A stretch of 43,602 nucleotides of DNA from positions 1 through 43,602 of IMG/VR virus record IMGVR_UViG_2541047812_000007. The stretch is one strand, 5' to 3'. The notes beneath the pieces were generated by a model that was given only the letters and a program-made list of their open reading frames with translations, was not told where the DNA came from and made no database searches. The DNA comes from a virus (Duplodnaviria > Heunggongvirae > Uroviricota > Caudoviricetes). Position 1 is the stretch's first letter. Each line of letters starts with the position of its first letter. Both the position numbers and the translations under genes were made by a program. Shown one piece after another: positions 1,268 to 43,602 of this stretch.

Positions 1268-1765
1268 TCAGTGCCACGATTTTTTCTTCTTCAGTGAATC
1301 GTATTGCTGCTCGCAGAATTCCCCTGCGATACGATACTTTTCAGCCTCAGCTGCTGTTGCGTTGTAAACTCGGTTGCTTTCTTCAAGCATGTCGGCGAGC
1401 ACACCGATGACCTTGCTGGCTGGCGTGCCAGGGGGGAAAGATCCGGTATAGTGTTCGGCGAGCCGCCTGGTTTTGTCAAGCTCGGCGCGCATGCTGTCAG
1501 CAGCGGAATTAGCATACTCAGCATCAGCACGCGCCGCATCGATACGGGATTGTGCTTCACGTTCAATTTGTGTTTTCTCCTGCTCACGCTGTGACCTTAA
1601 CTTATCATCAGCCTGTTTCTGATCTTCCTTCGCCTGCGCATACCCGGCATCGTACTGACGGATGCCGTGCACATTCCAGGCAACAACTCCTGATATGACC
1701 AGAACAGCAAGCATCGCCACGATAAGTAACTGTTTACGGTATGCTTTTACAAATGCCCAGATCAT
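1268..1765 (-). CDS. Rz-like inner-membrane spanin (i-spanin)
   Basis: N-terminal TM helix then charged coiled-coil; immediately downstream of the endolysin with a 4-nt ATGA overlap. Confidence 0.6.
1291..1539 (-). CDS. Rz1-like outer-membrane lipoprotein spanin (o-spanin), embedded in Rz in another frame
   Basis: Embedded ORF with signal peptide [16 protein letters not shown] followed by Cys (lipobox LLTAC) and a proline-rich mature part. Start chosen at the Met preceding the signal peptide. Confidence 0.5.
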   Translation of the reverse strand: MRRVLMLSMLIPLLTACAPSLTKPGGSPNTIPDLSPLARQPARSSVCSPTCLKKATEFTTQQQLRLKSIVSQGNSASSNTIH

Positions 1766-2391
1766 ACCGCCAGTACCTTACTTGCTGTGATGTACCGCGC
1801 ACGCCGGTCGTCGATACCGTTTCTGCCACCATTGATAATCAGAGTTACACGTACAATATCGCCGGTATACTTCATGCATCCTTTGCTGGCGAAGAACCAC
1901 GCCGCGCTACGAGCCGCATATTCGTCCTGCGCCAGCAGTTCAGGGCTCTCCAGCAGGTCAACCTTCAGACCGTTTCCGCAATCACGATAGTTATTCAAAC
2001 CGGTAATCTGGATAAGTCCGCGCCCTCGGTAATTCCAGCCATCACCAGGGGCATTGTTCCCCATGCGTTTGCTGTATACCAGATTTGCGATCGCGCGCTG
2101 GCGCTCAAGTGGCAATGGTGGTTCACCAGCACGGCGCCCCAGTGCATTAGCCTGCCCCTGAGTGAGACGCCCAGCCCGAACGAAGTTAGCCAGTCCGCTG
2201 ACACTGTAGTTGAAATTCTCCTGCAACCTGGTGAAGCTCCCAGACTCATGCCCGACTTGAGCAATAAACATTGCCTGATCTTCTGCTTTGCTGATACCAA
2301 ACTCTTTCATCGCAGAAGTTATATGCGAGAACCAGCGTGCGGCCAGTGCCTCGCTGATACCAGCAGCTCGCTGGAATTGTTTAATCTCCAT
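1762..2391 (-). CDS. Endolysin, glycoside hydrolase family 19 (chitinase-like lysozyme)
   Basis: Motifs QVGHESG and [11 protein letters not shown] typical of GH19 phage endolysins. Start set at internal ATG (MEIKQF...) instead of the longer ORF-track start at 2556. Confidence 0.85.
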
Positions 2392-2689
2392 GTTTAGACC
2401 TCGATACTTTAAAAATTTGAACGACGTTACCGCGCGTTTTAATAACCGCAGCCAGCATGACAGCGTTGATAATGACCTCAGATAAATCCACAGCCATTGG
2501 CGTACGTAACCAGATTGCATAGGCGACTCGAACAGGAATACTGGCCGCAGCAACAATCAGGAAATAAGCAAGCCATCCTCCCCACCTTCGATGTTGAGAG
2601 CCGTTACGCCGGAATGTGACAACGCGAATTGCTATGCCAGTGCAAATAACTGCATTGGTGATAAGCAAAAAAAACTCATGCGTTACCAT
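2381..2689 (-). CDS. Small membrane protein, holin/antiholin-like
   Basis: 102 aa with hydrophobic TM segments; overlaps the endolysin start by 11 nt and the upstream membrane protein by 14 nt. Confidence 0.5.
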
Positions 2690-3080
2690 CGTCTTTTCTC
2701 CCCGGAATTAACTCGCGTGGATTATCGGAACGGTGATAGAGCCATATACCAATACGCACAGCGACAATTGCTGACACGAATGCGCCTGCAGAGAAAACAA
2801 TCCCTTTTTCAAAAGAGTCCTGCGTGATGGTAGGGATCAGGCTGGCTATGCCGATAAGAATTGATGCTGCTGGTTTGTAAAAGAGAAGGCCACAAAGAAA
2901 GCTGAGCATCGAAAGGAGCACCCGGCGACGGATGGGGTACTCTACTGCAGAGGTAACAAAAATTACCGCCCCAGCCAAAGCCCCTAAAGCAACCTCCGGA
3001 GGGACACCTGCAATAACCGCAGCAAGAGAACCAAAACTAAGCAACTGATTTAATTGCTCACTTGTTACTTGAGCAGACAT
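2676..3080 (-). CDS. Holin-like multi-pass membrane protein
   Basis: 134 aa, several hydrophobic helices, charged C-terminus; first gene of the lysis cassette, preceded by a 300-bp AT-rich noncoding region. Confidence 0.55.
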   Translation of the reverse strand: MSAQVTSEQLNQLLSFGSLAAVIAGVPPEVALGALAGAVIFVTSAVEYPIRRRVLLSMLSFLCGLLFYKPAASILIGIASLIPTITQDSFEKGIVFSAGAFVSAIVAVRIGIWLYHRSDNPRELIPGRKDDGNA

Positions 3081-3361
3081 ACTTTCTCCTGTTTACTATC
3101 TATAAGCCAGTCAATTATTGATGACTAACCCCGCATAGTAAACCATATATGAATCATTATTGTTCCATATCATATATCTCAATAAAAGTACTAATGATTT
3201 TACAGAACGAGCCAGCAGAGTGGGGGCAGTTGTACAGGAACCATAGACTTAATTTTGTATTTAATAATGCTATGGTGTAATAAACCTGAACATGTATTTA
3301 AAATACGTACTGATTCATGATAGAATTCAAAGATAACTTTTCACAAACTCCGTTTTTGATA

Positions 3362-3390
3362 CCCGCAAAATATTGCGGGCTTTTTTTTAA
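3362..3390 (+). terminator. Hairpin plus T-run at the tailspike 3' end
   Basis: CCCGCAA-aat-ATTGCGGG followed by TTTTTTTT on the plus strand; the minus-strand version has a weaker U-tract. Confidence 0.4.
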
Positions 3391-6300
3391 CGTTCTTCCA
3401 GAGACTGAATCCGCTCTTTTATCTTATCCATTTCTCTGCGCTGCCATGCCGCCTCGATATAGAATAAGAGATCAGGTCTGACCCCCCATCTAGATCCTGC
3501 TGGCGTTATTTCAACGCGCTCAATGATGTCTTCCATTACCATCACTGGATTATCATCCTCATCAACAATGATGCTCCCGTCATTATCAGTCAGCGGCATT
3601 TCCCTTTGGCCAGTAATGACGTCATCATATACTGCGGGATAATCGTCATAGCAAAGAAAGGCATAGCGGCATGTTGTGCTTTCTTCTTCCATGAGTCCGT
3701 GAGAAATAAGAACATCACGAAGTTGCTGCGCGATTACACCATGATGTATCCTCGCTCCTTCTTCCCCCTTTATAGCGACAGCGTTCAGCCATTTATAAGC
3801 GATATACCTGACGTCACCCCAGGCATCCAGCAATGCTTCGTCAGGAGAGACCGGCTCTGTCTTTAATGTTCCGTCACTGGTAACCACAGGATTGGAGCCA
3901 AGATAAACTGTCGAGAACCTGTTTCCCGGACCACCAAGAGCATTTACATTATCAAGATAAGGTTTAACATCTCCGTTCTCAAAAAGATGTTCGAGTGCGT
4001 TATATACCGCGCGACGTGGAGTACTGCTTCCGGAACCATGCAACGTTATCATTGCACCATCTGCTGAAGACGTTGTTTCACCGCCGCTAACGATTAATCT
4101 CTGAGCGGTAACATCATCAGACGGTACTTTCTTCGCAATAATGGCGTAATTACCCTCAAGTTTGACTTCCGCGCGAACTTGTCCTGATGTACCTGCATGG
4201 ACAGTCAGTGACTGGACGGCAACATCATCTGTGAAATCAACGGGTACAGGAACCGTCCTCACGCCTGACGTCGACATAAAAGTAGGAAGCGTTCTGTTAG
4301 GAGTGGCTCCGTAGACAAAATCCCTTGAAACAAATTCTTCCTGTTTAATTTTCACCCTGAAACAATACAAATCAGCCGGGTGACCATCGTGAACATAAGG
4401 ATATTTTCTGTTGTTATCCCCTATGCTCCATGGGTTTAGAAAGTCTTCCCCACCGAAAATGTAGTACAGCCAGTTGTCTTTGATACAAACTGAACCAACA
4501 CCAACCGCAGAGTTAACTATTCCGCCCTGATAAATCTGATCAGTAACATTAACCCACTCTACATTATCCAGACTCCACTCATTGACGTTAACTCTGGTCA
4601 TAAATGTTCTTGGATAATTTCCTGCATAACGGTTATCAGGTTCTCCTCCTTCCCACTCACCAAATGCGCGCTCACTGCCAAAAATAATCAGCTCATCGCC
4701 AACTTTGGCAAAAGGAAGGTTTGAGTGATGAACATTATTTGGGAAGCGAAGAGAATTCCATGATGTACCTAAATCAGAGCTTCTGTGCAATGAACTACCG
4801 GGTTGAGTACTTAATGTCCCCCTGGTCGTCAGATACAGAATGCCATCATAATATTTTACACATGGCTCAGATGCATTCGCCTCATATTCTGCAGGTATGC
4901 GTCTGCGAACAAAGCTACCAGGAGAACCGAAAGCATCAGAGAAATAGAGTATCCCAAGCTCGCGTGGACCAATATCACCATTATGGTAGCCAACAGCAAA
5001 ACTGTTATCGCTAATCGTCGCAAAACTGTGAATCTCAGTAACAGGAGTGCTTCCGTCAACAAAAGAAGGAATAGTTCCAAGACTGGTTTTTCTCCATGGT
5101 GACGAGTGAAATGATGTACCAAAACTCCAGTATCTACCCTCGTTATTCTGATCCACATCCTGGGTATTTTGCGTCGTAACTGTAAAAGTATTTTTATCAA
5201 TAACAGTAGTCACCGTCATATTCCCGGTAACACCTGTAACACCAGAGTTTGAGAAGTTGACAAAATCACCAGCAAATAATCCGTGATCAGTAATGCGAAT
5301 ATAAGCGACTTGCTGATTTGCTGCTTTCGTTATACCACCATAAACGCGAAGGCTGCGACTCATTGGGCGATCCCACAACTCTGCAACCTGCAGTTTATTT
5401 CCTCTCACGGTCCGCGTCTCAATTACAGCAAAAAGGCGATTTCTGACAACCCCCATACTCATGCAGTGATAGTTAACTGTGGGATAGTTTTCATGTAAAT
5501 CTGTAAGCCATTCCGGCGTTGTCCAGGTCTTCCCGTCATCTCCTGAGCGAACCCATGCAACATGGAGGTTATTTACACCATGGCGGTCTCCAGCCATAAA
5601 AGGCGCATAGATGACATTGTCATATACAAACGTTTTATCCTGCGTCCAGGCGTTGTACCACGGTGTATCTGTAATTTTAAATAACTCTCCCTGGATAAAA
5701 TCTTCAGAAGCATAAAAAAGAGGCTGGCCCGGTATTCTCTCAAATAAAAAACGAGCATTTTTAAATCGACTGACATCCGGAAGAGTTGATACTTTAAAAG
5801 TAAGCCCTAATCCGTCAATTTTATAACCTGGAGATGAGGCTTCAAGGCACGCGCTTATTGCAGTGGAATCGTCATTTATACCATCACCAACAGCTCCAAA
5901 ATCTTTGGGGCTAATAGCATCACGCATTTTATCCTGGAACGTTCGGTACACAGCCCCAGAACCATACTGAATAAACCAACCAAAACCACCAACAACCCCG
6001 GCGATTGCAGCATCGACATAATTACGCATTGAGCGATTATTTACAGCGTCCTGCTCAAATGATGGATCTGCAAGGTTAGAAATTTTGTTTTGCTTTGCAT
6101 CGTAATATTTTGCAAGCAAAGATGGTTTCATCAATGCACGTCTGAACCACCCAAAACATTGCTGGATCAGCATCGTCAGGTAGTCAAAGGCATCTTCATG
6201 CACTTCGGGGAAAAATTTTCCCTGATTGCGAAGGTCTGTCTCCTGCACTACATCAAGCACACGATCTATCGTAATTCGCCATCCAGTAGCAAGCGGAGAC

Positions 6301-7005: not shown

Positions 7006-7118
7006 ATTTACATCGCACTCCTCTTGTGCCATAGTAATCGGGCACTGGCAAAATCCAGTGCCGGGATTGGCGTCCCGGATTACTAAAAGGCGCATTCACC
7101 GCGCAAGCGGTTTTTTTA
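6998..7118 (+). ncRNA. Candidate small RNA or terminated leader (about 120 nt)
   Basis: Runs from the predicted promoter to an intrinsic terminator (ACCGC-gcaa-GCGGT plus T7 at 7098-7118); contains nested GC-rich hairpins; the overlapping ORFs have no SD and poor context. Confidence 0.3.
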
Positions 7119-7274
7119 TGCGTATAGCACGGCCACATTCGTATTATGGTGGGCTGTGTGGGGGCACCGAAAGGTGCGCCGGGTCCTTTTAGCCGGTTAC
7201 GCCAACCCTGCACAGTTCACCACCAACCGATTGGCGTCGGTAGTGGTGATTAACCAGACTAAAAGGTAACCACT

Positions 7275-10026: not shown

Positions 10027-10098
10027 GTCGTTAATTCCTATACGTAGTTTTACGATACTGAAGCCCTGACGGTCTGGCCACCGTGGGGCTTCGCTGTT

Positions 10099-26541: not shown

Positions 26542-26618
26542 GTGGCATTAGCTCAGTTGGACAGAGCAACCGCCTTCTAAGCGGTTGGTCGCAGGTTCGA
26601 ATCCTGCATGCCACGCCA
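26542..26618 (+). tRNA. tRNA-Arg, anticodon UCU (reads AGA)
   Basis: 77-nt cloverleaf folded by hand: acceptor GTGGCAT/ATGCCAC, D-arm GCTC/GAGC, anticodon stem ACCGC/GCGGT with loop CTTCTAA, T-arm GCAGG-TTCGAAT-CCTGC, discriminator G, encoded CCA. Confidence 0.9.
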
Positions 26619-30002: not shown

Positions 30003-30273
30003 TATTCACCTTTATCGCGAACACCTTTACCGGTTTATCACCGAAGTGCGGATGTGTGATTGTCTTGATTTCATATCCACCATACGGAACATCAATTCTG
30101 CGACTGGAATCGTCGCGCTTCGGATATCCCTTTGTGATAATCAGGCGGTCATATTCCCGGAACATAATTCGCTTATTCCAGTAGTCATTGCACAGGCGAT
30201 ACTCTTCCGTTTTCTCCCCGCGAATCATGGCATCGAAGTATTCACCTTTGACGGCAAGTTGTAGGTTAGCCAC
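29992..30273 (-). CDS. Hypothetical nin-region protein (93 aa)
   Basis: ORF with short overlaps to neighbours. Confidence 0.5.
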   Translation of the reverse strand: MANLQLAVKGEYFDAMIRGEKTEEYRLCNDYWNKRIMFREYDRLIITKGYPKRDDSSRRIDVPYGGYEIKTITHPHFGDKPVKVFAIKVNIDG

Positions 30274-31159
30274 GGTTAACCTCCTGCGGCGGTTCCGGTA
30301 GAGGCATCCAGTACAAGGCGTTCCCTAACCACGATAAAGTGCCGTCGCTCAACTCCACGTATTCCCCTTGTACCTGTCCTGCCATATACTCGCCGTGCTT
30401 TGAATAAATTAAAATCCAATCATCTTGAGCGGGCATTCGCTCACTACAGCTTATCCAACCATCCGGAGTTACCGGATAGTTGCCAGCCAGTCTACGCAAA
30501 ACAGTCTTAACCGCCTCAATACGGTCATCATCGCAACTTTCCAGCGTATCTATGCGATCGAGCATGATGATGGCGTTATCAATATCAGGATTGCCGGTCC
30601 ACTCATTACCGCGATTGGATTCGGCAGCCTGGTTGCCGCGTACTGGTTGATTCTCGGCTTTACCCTGTCTGTCGTCGCTGCATGAATGCCCTTCCAGCCA
30701 GACCAGTGCTTGTCGCATGAAATACGCAATATGCTTGCCGTGGTAATCGTCTTCATCGATGTGAAAAGCGATACTGCGGATATATTCAATTGCGTTTTCA
30801 ATGGCCTCCGGCGTTACCGGAGTTGGTCCATCGAATTCGGGCATGTCAGGACCTTTTCTGATAGCTTTAGCCAGCTCCAGCGGGTCATCGTAAAGCCAGT
30901 CGCCAGTTTGTGGGTGATTTGCTTCTGCAAGCTGCGCAGCCCATTCAAGACCATCTTTTTGACCTTGGAGATAATCAAGCGGCAACTCTTCATGATTACT
31001 TGCAGGTTCGGCACTATCAGCTTCGCGCCGCTTCTGTAGCTCTGCTGCCATTGCTCTCACGACTTCAACTGGTGCCCTTGCAGCAAACTCTATGTTGGTG
31101 ATCAGCTCATTAAGATATTGCTCGCCTGGATACTGTTTCTTATCGGTTATAGTGGTCAT
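30266..31159 (-). CDS. DUF551-like domain protein
   Basis: C-terminal motifs GWISCSERMP and YWMPLPEPP typical of DUF551; start at internal ATG with SD AAGGAG. Confidence 0.6.
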   Translation of the reverse strand: MTTITDKKQYPGEQYLNELITNIEFAARAPVEVVRAMAAELQKRREADSAEPASNHEELPLDYLQGQKDGLEWAAQLAEANHPQTGDWLYDDPLELAKAIRKGPDMPEFDGPTPVTPEAIENAIEYIRSIAFHIDEDDYHGKHIAYFMRQALVWLEGHSCSDDRQGKAENQPVRGNQAAESNRGNEWTGNPDIDNAIIMLDRIDTLESCDDDRIEAVKTVLRRLAGNYPVTPDGWISCSERMPAQDDWILIYSKHGEYMAGQVQGEYVELSDGTLSWLGNALYWMPLPEPPQEVNRG

Positions 31160-31160
31160 A

Positions 31161-31349
31161 TCACTCTCCTTTAGTGCGAAAGTGGTTTTTCCAGCGGTTT
31201 TGCGCCGCGCTGGGCTTTTTGCAAAAACCACAATCCATCATCCCGTAATGTTTCATTAACCCCATCCGTCGGTTGCTGAGTCTCACCCACTGCCAGACGC
31301 CAGGAGCGTTTCTACGAACTAACAGAATCTTTGCTTTACGGTTTTTCAT
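31161..31349 (-). CDS. Small basic protein (62 aa), third of three coupled small ORFs
   Basis: Begins MKNRKAK; ATGA overlap with the upstream small ORF. Confidence 0.4.
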   Translation of the reverse strand: MKNRKAKILLVRRNAPGVWQWVRLSNRRMGLMKHYGMMDCGFCKKPSAAQNRWKNHFRTKGE

Positions 31350-31522
31350 CTTACAGCGTACCCTTTCTTCCGCCTGTTCTGTGACGCAGTAGGCTTACGC
31401 TTTGCGGCAAAAGCCACCTGACCAAATGGATGGAGTACCGCTATCTTATGGTTGCTAATAACCAGCTCCACCACACGCACAGGTCGCTGTAAAAAAAGTC
31501 GTTTTGCCTTACGGTTTTTCAT
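31346..31522 (-). CDS. Small basic protein (58 aa), second of three
   Basis: Begins MKNRKAK; SD AGGAG; ATGA overlap; below the ORF-track size cutoff. Confidence 0.4.
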   Translation of the reverse strand: MKNRKAKRLFLQRPVRVVELVISNHKIAVLHPFGQVAFAAKRKPTASQNRRKKGYAVR

Positions 31523-31695
31523 CGCTTTGCTCTCCTGCGTCTCTTTGCTGCTCGTCGTGCCGCTGCAATACCGGTATGGCGGCGCTTTGGTGACGGGATG
31601 ATGTTGTCAGCCATCAGTACATGTGGCTTTGCAATTAGCGCAGAAGCCCAAAAACGAGTCGGGTACGGTAACAAGCCGATACATGCCACACGCAT
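31519..31695 (-). CDS. Small basic protein (58 aa), first of three
   Basis: Strong SD AGGAGG 7 nt before ATG; TAATG overlap with the upstream gene; C-terminus AKRRRRAKR. Confidence 0.4.
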   Translation of the reverse strand: MRVACIGLLPYPTRFWASALIAKPHVLMADNIIPSPKRRHTGIAAARRAAKRRRRAKR

Positions 31696-32288
31696 TACTC
31701 ACCTCCTTTGATGCGAATGCCAGCGGTGCGTGGCACATTAACTTCCACGATGCGCACAGTTGGTTTGTACATCTCAATCGCTGTCAGCCAGTCAGCGCCA
31801 GTCATGCGCTTTTCTGCATCGCCATTAGTCCAATTAACCGGTACACCAATAGCCTTCATCGCGATTTCTATTTCCCCGGCAATGGCGCTTTTTCCGCAAC
31901 CAGTAAAACCAGATACAACGACCAGAACTTCACCTTTGGCTGGTTTTATTTCCCGCGCTTCCAGTTCTGCTATGCGCTTACTTCCATCCGAGATAACACC
32001 TTCGTAATACTCACGCTGCTCGTTGAGTTTTGATTTTGTCTCCTCAAGCTCAACTCTCAGCTTCCCTACCGTTAGCGCAATATCCTCGTTCTCCTGGTCG
32101 CGGCGTTTGATGTATTGCTGGTTTCTTTCCAGTTCATCCAGCAGTGCCAGCGCGATATCTGGCGAAAAGTGCTTCATAAAATCGTTAAGCGCATTAATTC
32201 GCTGATCGAAGGGCATTACAGGTGCTTCACCAGCAATTTTTGTTTTTTCAGCGATTTCACGAAGCTTTTGATAATCAATCTTGCTCAC
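31695..32288 (-). CDS. Hypothetical coiled-coil protein (197 aa)
   Basis: Coiled-coil middle section; possibly Ead/Ea22-like, not verifiable here. Confidence 0.55.
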   Translation of the reverse strand: MSKIDYQKLREIAEKTKIAGEAPVMPFDQRINALNDFMKHFSPDIALALLDELERNQQYIKRRDQENEDIALTVGKLRVELEETKSKLNEQREYYEGVISDGSKRIAELEAREIKPAKGEVLVVVSGFTGCGKSAIAGEIEIAMKAIGVPVNWTNGDAEKRMTGADWLTAIEMYKPTVRIVEVNVPRTAGIRIKGGE

Positions 32289-41343: not shown

Positions 41344-41667
41344 AATCACGCCTGACGAATCGCGATTATCTCGCTATTGGTATTGCAGAGATTGCTGGAC
41401 TCAATGGCGCATGATTTGACAATGCCGCCAGAGCTATCGCATACTGACCGCACTAGAAAACAAACAGCGGTCATCCGCACCCGATAGCTTTGCGGCTTTT
41501 TTATGCCTGCAATCTGGCATAGTCACATCCGTACAAAGGTCGGGTGGAGAGGCGTAATACAACACCCGAAAGGGGAATATGCCCGGAGCTACTGTTTGTG
41601 CTCTAGTTGACACCCGATCACCAGCTACTAACTGGTTTTCGTAACTAAAAACAAACAGGAGGTCATC

Positions 41668-42351: not shown

Positions 42352-43602
42352 TTATTCCCCCGCTATCCACTTCTCAAACTTCGACGGGGAGAACGGAATC
42401 AGATCTGTATGCTCCCCGTTAATCCAGGAATCAATCATATCGGCCCACTGCTGCAACATGTAGGCGCGCTGTCTGGCGTATTCCGCTTTGTTATATACGG
42501 CGCGCACACCTTTCTGCTCATGTGCCAGAGCCTTTTCAATCCAGTCTGAAGGATAACCAGCCTCATGCAACAACGTACTGGCTGTACGGCGCATATCATG
42601 TACAGTGAAGTCCTGAATATGCTCACCATCTTCATTTATTATTTTCACCGTTCTGTCGATCAGAGAGTTCAGCGCGGCATTAGATAATGGCTTCCGGAAA
42701 TTGTAACGACCAGGAACCAGATATTCACTTCCACCAGCGCACATCTGCAACCCGACCAATATATCCTGTGCCTGTTTAGGCAGGTAAATAACGTGCGCCC
42801 GGCTTCCCTTCATGCGGTCTGGAGGAATTGTCCATGTCCATTTTTTAAAATCTATTTCATCCCACGTTGCATTGGTGAATTCGCCCTTACGAACCATAGT
42901 GATAAGCACCAGTTTTAAAGCCATTTTCATAGTGCCCATAGCACCAATGGCATCCAGCGTACGGAAGAACAGGCCAATTTCTTCTGGTGTCAGTGTTCGC
43001 TCTCGTGGTTTAAATATGGCGATAGACGAAGGTTTAATGTCAGCCGCAGGATTAAACAAACCATGACCACGGTCATTGGCGTGACGGTATACGCTGCTGA
43101 TGATCTCCCTTGCCTGTACTGCTGTTGCCCGACCACCGCGTTCGACAATCCGGTCACACAAATCACGAACCATCGATGTGGTAATTTCAGCCATCATTTT
43201 GTTGCCAAGAACCGGAAGTATGTCACGGTCGATCACTGCCTGCTTCATTGCGCGGGTACTTTCAGCCAGGATGACGTGTTTCATATAACTGTCGGTATGT
43301 ACCGCAAACGTCTCGGCACCACGAATCTTTTTGATACCGTCACGTTTAGCCGCAGCCGGCGACTGGCCTGCTTTAAGCAGCTTCTTTGCAGCAATCAGTT
43401 CTTCTCGCGCTTCTGCCAGGCTGATACCGTCACGCCCATACTGCCCGATTACCAGTGTTTCGCGGCGACCGTTGATACGGTAGTCATAGCGAAACGAGAC
43501 CGTGCCTGACGTAAGCACAGCTACATACAGCCCGTCACGATCGGAGACCTTGTACAGTTTGTCCTGCGGCTTGAGGTTTTTTAATTTTGTATCGGTAAGC
43601 AC
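42352..43602 (-). CDS. int: Tyrosine integrase (P4-type)
   Basis: C-terminal catalytic residues (HDMRRT, LAHE, conserved Tyr region); start codon sits at the window edge, so the true start may lie outside. Confidence 0.9.
   Translation of the reverse strand: MLTDTKLKNLKPQDKLYKVSDRDGLYVAVLTSGTVSFRYDYRINGRRETLVIGQYGRDGISLAEAREELIAAKKLLKAGQSPAAAKRDGIKKIRGAETFAVHTDSYMKHVILAESTRAMKQAVIDRDILPVLGNKMMAEITTSMVRDLCDRIVERGGRATAVQAREIISSVYRHANDRGHGLFNPAADIKPSSIAIFKPRERTLTPEEIGLFFRTLDAIGAMGTMKMALKLVLITMVRKGEFTNATWDEIDFKKWTWTIPPDRMKGSRAHVIYLPKQAQDILVGLQMCAGGSEYLVPGRYNFRKPLSNAALNSLIDRTVKIINEDGEHIQDFTVHDMRRTASTLLHEAGYPSDWIEKALAHEQKGVRAVYNKAEYARQRAYMLQQWADMIDSWINGEHTDLIPFSPSKFEKWIAGE

Follow-up and report, generated by a model that had tools for sequence, protein, structure and literature searches.

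The nin region of lambda carries small open reading frames (ORFs), among them NinD, NinE, NinF, and NinH, that encode ~57 to 68 amino acids (aa), pack tightly or overlap, and are dispensable; some of their products are basic. Small ORFs are also found in the exo-xis region of lambda and the Stx phages (orf60a, orf61, orf63, and Ea8.5), and these affect the choice between lysis and lysogeny in lambda and phi24B (PMC8614690, PMC7093339). In addition, an ORF of phage origin, X015, is among the 72 novel translated ORFs reported for Escherichia coli O157:H7 EDL933 (Neuhaus et al. 2016; PMC4765031).

Here, we analyze three small genes, designated A, B, and C, in a window of 43,602 nucleotides (nt), which is the whole stretch of DNA under study (IMG/VR virus record IMGVR_UViG_2541047812_000007). 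The right-hand 20 kb of this window is 95 to 98% identical to the epsilon15/phiV10-type phages HEMP4, vB_EcoP_ZX5, TL-2011b, and phiV10. Orthologs of the genes are present in phiV10 (p49/p50/p51), TL-2011b (gp16), 933W (L0068 and X015), and VT2-Sakai (orf7), where they follow the same order as in the window, namely, an Ead/Ea22-like gene, A, and one or two B/C-type genes, with the same overlaps and a DNA identity of 85 to 98%. Whereas the window carries A-B-C, 933W and VT2-Sakai carry A-C, and the Stx-phage module is located in the exo-xis (ea) region rather than beside terminase. A, B, and C are ordinary, already catalogued accessory genes of E. coli temperate phages. Our overall explanation for them, which we consider probable, is that they are accessory coding genes of an epsilon15/phiV10-like prophage that are translationally coupled, behave as cassettes, and encode proteins that may bind nucleic acid.

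Three small overlapping ORFs fill 535 nt between replication and terminase genes

The minus-strand segment from 31161 to 31695 (535 nt) is tiled exactly by three ATG-initiated ORFs. The features of the segment and its flanks are as follows.

31695-32288, minus strand: Ead/Ea22-like gene, 197 aa (Pfam Ead_Ea22, E = 6.9e-28)
31702-31708, minus strand: Shine-Dalgarno sequence (SD) of A, AAGGAGG, strong, within the 3' end of the Ead/Ea22-like gene
31519-31695, minus strand: ORF A, 58 aa, full sequence MRVACIGLLPYPTRFWASALIAKPHVLMADNIIPSPKRRHTGIAAARRAAKRRRRAKR
31503-31523, minus strand: 21-nt repeat, copy 1, ATGAAAAACCGTAAGGCAAAA, covering MKNRKAK of B and the stop of A
31346-31522, minus strand: ORF B, 58 aa, full sequence MKNRKAKRLFLQRPVRVVELVISNHKIAVLHPFGQVAFAAKRKPTASQNRRKKGYAVR
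31330-31350, minus strand: 21-nt repeat, copy 2, ATGAAAAACCGTAAAGCAAAG, covering MKNRKAK of C and the stop of B
31161-31349, minus strand: ORF C, 62 aa, full sequence MKNRKAKILLVRRNAPGVWQWVRLSNRRMGLMKHYGMMDCGFCKKPSAAQNRWKNHFRTKGE
30266-31159, minus strand: DUF551-domain gene, 297 aa from the ATG at 31159 (Pfam DUF551, E = 6.7e-11)

Chance alone would seldom lead three ATG-ORFs, each at least 50 aa long, to tile all 535 nt. When the segment was shuffled with its dinucleotide composition preserved, at least 95% tiling by such ORFs on either strand was reached in 4 of 5,000 shuffles, and 100% tiling was reached in none.

The start codon of B overlaps the stop codon of A in an ATGA, as does the start codon of C with the stop codon of B. 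An earlier reading of this DNA, made from the sequence only, had described both TAATG and ATGA overlaps among the three ORFs; the ATGA overlaps stand, but the TAATG joins the stop of the Ead/Ea22-like gene to the start of A. At the other end of the array, the TGA stop of C is followed after 1 base by the ATG (31159) of the DUF551 gene, the SD of which is carried by the last codons of C (AAAGGAGAG; anti-SD duplex of -9.1 kcal/mol). Overlaps of stop and start codons are the rule across the whole early operon. The sequence-only reading had also given each of the three ORFs an SD, which is accurate for A (anti-SD duplex of -12.9 kcal/mol, strong) and B (-7.4 kcal/mol, moderate), whereas the SD of C is weak (-4.5 kcal/mol). 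From the geometry of the junctions, we infer that translation of A, B, and C is coupled. Ribosomes would load at the strong SD of A, and B and C would be translated mainly by termination-reinitiation at the ATGA overlaps, because their own SDs are moderate and weak, respectively. The 21-bp repeat noticed at first inspection was recovered by a repeat search at the two positions listed above, with 20 of 21 positions matching (95% identity) and a spacing of 173 nt; the copies differ by synonymous changes.

On the minus strand, A, B, and C are preceded by genes for a DnaT-domain replication protein, a lambda-P-like protein, a DUF1064 protein, a 233-aa hypothetical protein, and the Ead/Ea22-like protein, and they are followed by the DUF551 gene, two small genes, a terminator-like hairpin (29425-29408), and the small terminase gene. 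Given this order, which places the array between the replication genes (DnaT-domain and lambda-P-like) and the gene for the small terminase, the label "nin-like" that the region had received is correct by position. A consensus scan, albeit a crude one, detected no sigma-70-like promoter between 31100 and 32300, and no terminator-like site was found inside the same interval; a search of positions 30900 to 32000 against Rfam gave no match at E ≤ 1. Because the array holds neither a promoter-like nor a terminator-like site, A, B, and C would lie within a long early operon, which extends from the replication genes to terminase, as three accessory genes without a promoter of their own.

The Ead/Ea22-like protein itself has a Walker-A-like GFTGCGKS motif in its C-terminal ~85 residues, with weak matches to APS_kinase and AAA_16. 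In a Salmonella-type phage (locus L252), a different N-terminal half precedes this C-terminal domain, which moves together with A and C as a single module; there, the Ead C-terminal domain, A, and C are located directly upstream of the lysis genes.

Elsewhere in the window, we observed a phage-borne tRNA-Arg(TCT) gene (26542-26618, plus strand). A connection between this tRNA and the rare arginine codons of A, B, and C was considered and rejected, as AGR (AGA/AGG) accounts for a fraction of 0.26 of their Arg codons and 0.20 of those in the window's long genes, which is no meaningful difference; the tRNA suits the entire prophage rather than A, B, and C specifically. Rfam matches above the gathering score were obtained on the plus strand for isrK (7042-7117), C4 antisense RNA (7142-7227), and sar RNA (10028-10095), which suggests that the prophage has a P1/P22-type antisense-controlled immunity or antirepressor region. 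A further Rfam match, to sRNA-Xcc1 (41538-41627, plus strand; 64.8 bits against a gathering score of 53), lies near the right-end ORF at 42352-43602 on the minus strand.

Frame conservation and footprints on an A ortholog mark the ORFs as genes

A, B, and C are very probably real, translated genes. In all 163 loci of our first analysis set, as well as in all the array variants found among ~250 loci, the frames were intact and the ATGA junctions were kept. The pooled pN/pS of A was 0.30 in the annotated frame and 1.16 to 1.43 in four of the five other frames; for the B/C family, the corresponding values were 0.57 and 0.99 to 1.25. The fifth frame was low as well (0.37 for A and 0.68 for B/C), but this frame is antisense, has its wobble positions in common with the annotated frame, and is broken by stop codons. 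When the distinct single-base variants within each near-identical set were compared with expectation by a binomial test, synonymous changes were in excess in all three genes.

A: 18 of 33 variants synonymous, 26% expected, P = 5.6e-4
B: 10 of 16 variants synonymous, 24% expected, P = 1.2e-3
C: 15 of 33 variants synonymous, 19.5% expected, P = 6.4e-4

Indels also kept the frame, as illustrated by a variant of A in which an in-frame deletion of 21 nt leaves a 51-aa protein. Conservation of the three frames in related prophages, which the sequence-only reading had named as a check, was thus found together with purifying selection in all three genes. The description of three small basic overlapping ORFs likewise held up, given that the frames tile the region, pN/pS is low, and synonymous changes are in excess.

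Independent evidence for translation comes from X015, which we recognized as an A ortholog through the sequence in the supplement of the published study (PMC4765031). X015 (MRVACIGLLPYPTRFWASALIAKNIIPTPKRRHTGIAAARRAAKRCRRAKR) is the 51-aa A variant of 933W and VT2-Sakai, with 49 of 51 aligned residues identical and 7 residues deleted. Its footprints had an RPKM of 35, a gene coverage of 0.84, and a footprint-to-transcript ratio (RCV) of 0.32, which is modest; mass spectrometry peptides were not found (PMC4765031). Ribosome profiling had been proposed as a further check on the ORFs, and the footprints on X015 thus already provide it, with a positive result, for one of the three genes, the A ortholog alone. 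With conserved frames, in-frame indels, and footprints on the A ortholog, the claim that small genes had been passed over because of a size cutoff was supported.

A and the B/C genes form two families

A matched phrog_13831 over its full length (E = 2.2e-41; residues 1 to 58 on positions 1 to 58 of the 58-position profile). B and C both matched phrog_1380, B with residues 1 to 58 on profile positions 1 to 60 of 62 (E = 6.5e-23) and C with residues 1 to 62 on profile positions 1 to 62 of 62 (E = 9.2e-40). In a BLASTP comparison, B and C aligned as full-length paralogs, with 37% identity across 54 residues (E = 6e-10). The common N terminus MKNRKAK that had been pointed out for two of the ORFs is therefore present, but it belongs to a much wider likeness. 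The possibility that A is a divergent member of the B/C family was considered and rejected, with an hhalign probability of 0.2%.

ORF A carries a conserved GLLPYPxRFW motif near its N terminus, and an arginine-rich helix (KRRHTGIAAARRAAKRRRRAKR) is predicted at its C terminus. The B/C family is defined by three motifs, M-[KN]-N-R-K-A-K, [VI]-S-N-[RH]-[RK], and [KR]-x-S-A-A-Q-N-R-W-K-N-H, which surround a core that is variable in sequence and length; MKNRKAK, SN[RH][RK], and SA[AS]QNR are present in both B and C. As judged from the alignments, the B/C motifs are conserved as protein, beyond the DNA level; at the motif ends of diverged members, pS was 0.76 to 0.77 and pN was 0.00 to 0.07. Constraint on the core was weak (pN/pS of 0.5 to 1.0 between types), and positive selection on the core was not detected, with pN/pS at most 1 and synonymous sites saturated.

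We also observed a divergent B/C member, P0046, that stands by itself. This 79-aa protein has a GTG start and is encoded by an isolated plus-strand gene (positions 3486-4240 of locus L248), which is located behind an ~500-nt AT-rich intergenic region and between minus-strand capsid-type genes of an unrelated phage, a moron-like placement. In P0046, KNRKAK and KPSAAQNRWKNH are retained although many codons differ synonymously. This placement shows that the B/C family works without A.

B/C-type genes are probably gained, lost, and exchanged as cassettes

The most frequent arrangements were Ead-A-C-DUF551 (56 loci) and Ead-A-B-C-DUF551 (48 loci). Further forms were C alone, A-C'-C'', and, at one locus, two modules in the order A-B-C-x-x-A-C. 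Although a B/C-type gene came directly after A in each of the complete loci examined, B/C-type genes occurred without A at 9 loci and as the stand-alone gene described above, and their copy number ranged from one to three. Some pairs of genes were mosaic, with 3' ends that were identical (pS of 0.00) beside cores that were saturated (pS of 0.75), while reverse mosaic pairs had near-identical cores and different tails. The tail read ...KGYAVR* when another cassette came next and ...NHLRTKGE* when a DUF551-type gene came next. Similarity to other phages extended from ~35 nt upstream of the start of A to just beyond the stop of C, where the next gene starts.

Paralogy of B and C, together with their recombination as cassettes, is highly probable on the evidence of these comparisons. 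Units would be added, removed, and recombined by unequal or illegitimate recombination inside the conserved coding segments at the 5' and 3' ends, which include the 21-nt repeat, a step that we infer from the array and mosaic patterns. The locus offers a clean small example of cassette gain and loss and of intragenic mosaicism at conserved coding ends.

Composition and motifs point to possible nucleic acid binding

The net charge is +14 for A, +15 for B, and +14 for C, with pI values of 11.6 to 12.0. Almost every invariant position is occupied by Lys, Arg, Asn, Gln, or Ser, whereas hydrophobic positions vary. Since the net charge is so high (+14 to +15) and the conserved residues are polar or basic, nucleic acid binding is our best guess for the activity of these proteins. 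On this basis, it is possible, and we tentatively propose, that A, B, and C are small nucleic acid-binding proteins made early after induction or infection. The earlier suggestion of nucleic acid-binding regulators is plausible to the same extent, being compatible with the composition and the conserved motifs.

AlphaFold2 models were of low confidence for both families. In the model of C (pLDDT of 65.8), three strands are accompanied by a helix at the C terminus (residues 48 to 59), and that of A shows a short stretch of helix in addition to an Arg-rich helix at residues 42 to 57 (pLDDT of ~72 for the helix and 63.6 overall). A would bind nucleic acid through this arginine-rich C-terminal helix; for B and C, the contacts would be made by a basic arm at the N terminus, a small beta-sheet, and a polar, basic helix at the C terminus; and all three would act early after induction or infection. 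Searches for related proteins of known function returned little. No Pfam match at E ≤ 1 was obtained for A, B, or C except for one chance-level zinc finger, NCBIfam and PADLOC gave no match for any of the three, and sequence and profile searches of the PDB yielded nothing meaningful, with no known nucleic acid-binding fold tied to either family. A relationship between B/C and the stationary-phase ribosome-associated protein Sra (RpsV) was tried and rejected; using a sequence that we take to be that of Sra, the hhalign probability was 0.8% over only 12 columns around ISN.

The main alternative, which we regard as doubtful, though worth weighing, is that the genes are real but that their products target a host or phage protein or the envelope, for example, as small inhibitors of a host protein that acts in defense or division or as a nuclease. 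In that case, the variability of the core would mirror adaptation to variable targets, and the contrast between conserved termini and a highly variable, mosaic core, the variation in copy number, and the lack of a detected nucleic acid-binding fold all speak for this explanation, as do the moron-rich sites at which the genes are found (nin-like here, exo-xis in the Stx phages, and between structural genes for the stand-alone member). However, invariant Lys, Arg, Asn, Gln, and Ser residues and a charge of +14 to +15 are more typical of contact with nucleic acid than of a protein interface, no match to a PADLOC or anti-defense-related family was obtained, and a dN/dS of >1 was not detected in the core.

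A bolder proposal, which we consider improbable, is that A and the B/C proteins form a new class of small basic phage effectors carried in a recombination-driven variable cassette of early operons. If so, the fixed terminal motifs would bind one target (RNA, a DNA structure, or the ribosome), the exchanged cores and variable copy number would diversify a second specificity, and a role in counter-defense or superinfection control would be possible.

The proposal that the trio is an addiction-type module, with A as the antitoxin and a B/C-type protein as the toxin, or the reverse, was not borne out, and we consider it very unlikely. The genes are indeed small, overlapping, and cotranscribed, and A always directly precedes a B/C-family gene in the complete loci, as would suit a toxin-antitoxin pair. 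The variation of the arrays nevertheless argues against such a pair, since B/C-type genes occur without A at the 9 loci and as the stand-alone moron and are present in one to three copies; so do the absence of a promoter of their own in the crude consensus scan and the absence of toxin, antitoxin, or defense family matches in Pfam, NCBIfam, and PADLOC. In addition, both would-be partners are strongly basic.

We give equally little credence to the idea that conservation resides in the DNA or RNA itself, with the 21-nt repeats and conserved 3' segments serving as sites of recombination or regulation and with ORFs that are incidental or in decay. Mosaic pairs with identical ends and diverged cores, module boundaries at conserved segments, and weak constraint on the core would fit this idea. 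Within the motifs, however, the amino acids are unchanged despite an accumulation of synonymous changes, every variant retains the frame, footprints are reported on the A ortholog (PMC4765031), and Rfam gave no match across 30900 to 32000. Our preferred reading remains that of coupled, cassette-like accessory genes whose basic products would bind nucleic acid.

The module is widespread in E. coli and inconsistently annotated

A 661-nt region matched 141 phage records and was present in 931 of 5,426 complete E. coli genomes, at 1,123 places (790 chromosomal and 333 on plasmids). Protein sequences identical to A were found on 160 contigs and those identical to B on at least 1,000 contigs, each as "hypothetical protein [Escherichia coli]"; C corresponds to WP_032150727.1, with the same annotation, and together with close variants is found on at least 1,000 contigs. 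Both families are nonetheless narrow, being confined to Escherichia and Salmonella prophages with marginal matches in Klebsiella and Citrobacter. A search of 1.84 billion representative proteins with the B/C profile found only 47, none of them annotated, and the family A profile returned enterobacterial hypothetical proteins only. Among species-representative genomes, the one match was a 228-bp contig of an Acinetobacter idrijaensis assembly (JQCU01000388.1; locus L166), 37% identical to C, and this contig probably represents contamination or a stray phage read. When viral sequences were scanned again with the alignment, the same close loci came back, and literature searches with peptide strings of the ORFs or the accession gave no match.

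The block is also carried outside the phages named above. A lambdoid "ea"-type block with Ead/Ea22-like, DUF4752, A, B, C, and DUF551 remnants was observed on plasmid p1303_95 (positions 1592-5554 of locus L001), and the same block occurs in P1-like phage-plasmids (RCS47 and records named Punavirus P1); many 90- to 100-kb E. coli plasmids carry a lambdoid "ea"-type block with A, B, and C.

Annotation of the trio varies between records. In phiV10, all three genes are annotated, as p49, p50, and p51, and the likeness of p50 and p51 was noted by its annotators. By comparison, PGAP calls C alone on plasmid p1303_95, and B alone (gp16) is annotated in TL-2011b. In 933W (locus L002, 4306-4593) and VT2-Sakai (locus L251, 1109-1793), L0068 and orf7 are 95-aa ORFs that correspond to C extended upstream via an alternative frame of the 51-aa A, and both are probably overextended. 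VT2-Sakai orf8 overlaps the ea22-like gene, and A is unannotated in 933W and VT2-Sakai, although X015 was reported as translated (PMC4765031). These inconsistent calls (C only, B only, or C extended through A) are what could be said for the view that the ORFs are spurious or that the true gene is one longer frame, as in the 95-aa L0068 and orf7, but this view is scarcely credible, given that shifted A frames have a pN/pS of ~1.2, that upstream extension of the C frame is closed by stop codons in this window, and that the X015 footprints were assigned to the A frame (PMC4765031).

The three-gene reading is thus to be preferred; A and B are often missed across phages and RefSeq. With PHROG families, identical NCBI proteins, the phiV10 trio, and footprints on the A ortholog already on record, the value of these genes as a discovery is small. 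The module is nevertheless widespread, in 931 of 5,426 genomes, in Stx phages, and in P1-like phage-plasmids, and a functional test would therefore annotate many genomes.

Comparison with known systems

Like type II toxin-antitoxin pairs, A and the B/C-type genes are small, overlapping, and cotranscribed, and A is always followed by a B/C-type gene. Unlike such pairs, they do not form an obligate couple, as B/C-type genes are also found by themselves and in several copies; the proteins of both types are basic; and neither a promoter of their own, in the crude consensus scan, nor family matches were found.

A second comparison is with the arginine-rich motif (ARM) RNA-binding peptides of lambda N and HK022 Nun, as A ends in a predicted Arg/Ala-rich helix of ~16 residues. 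The composition of this helix resembles that of ARMs. Its position is C-terminal, however, whereas that of the ARM in lambda N and HK022 Nun is N-terminal, and no sequence match to N-type families was obtained; no boxB-like target was identified, and the Rfam search over 30900 to 32000 was blank.

The small ORFs of the lambda and Stx-phage exo-xis region show no homology to A, B, and C, and the exo-xis literature that we found does not mention A or the B/C genes. They resemble A, B, and C in that they are neighbors of an Ea22-type gene and are transcribed early. The lambda nin proteins have no sequence relationship to A, B, or C either: the Pfam models of NinD, NinE, NinF, and NinH gave no match to the three proteins at E ≤ 1, nor to 17 B/C-family members at E ≤ 10. 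What the nin genes share with A, B, and C is a small size, tight packing, accessory status, and a position between the replication genes and the late genes.
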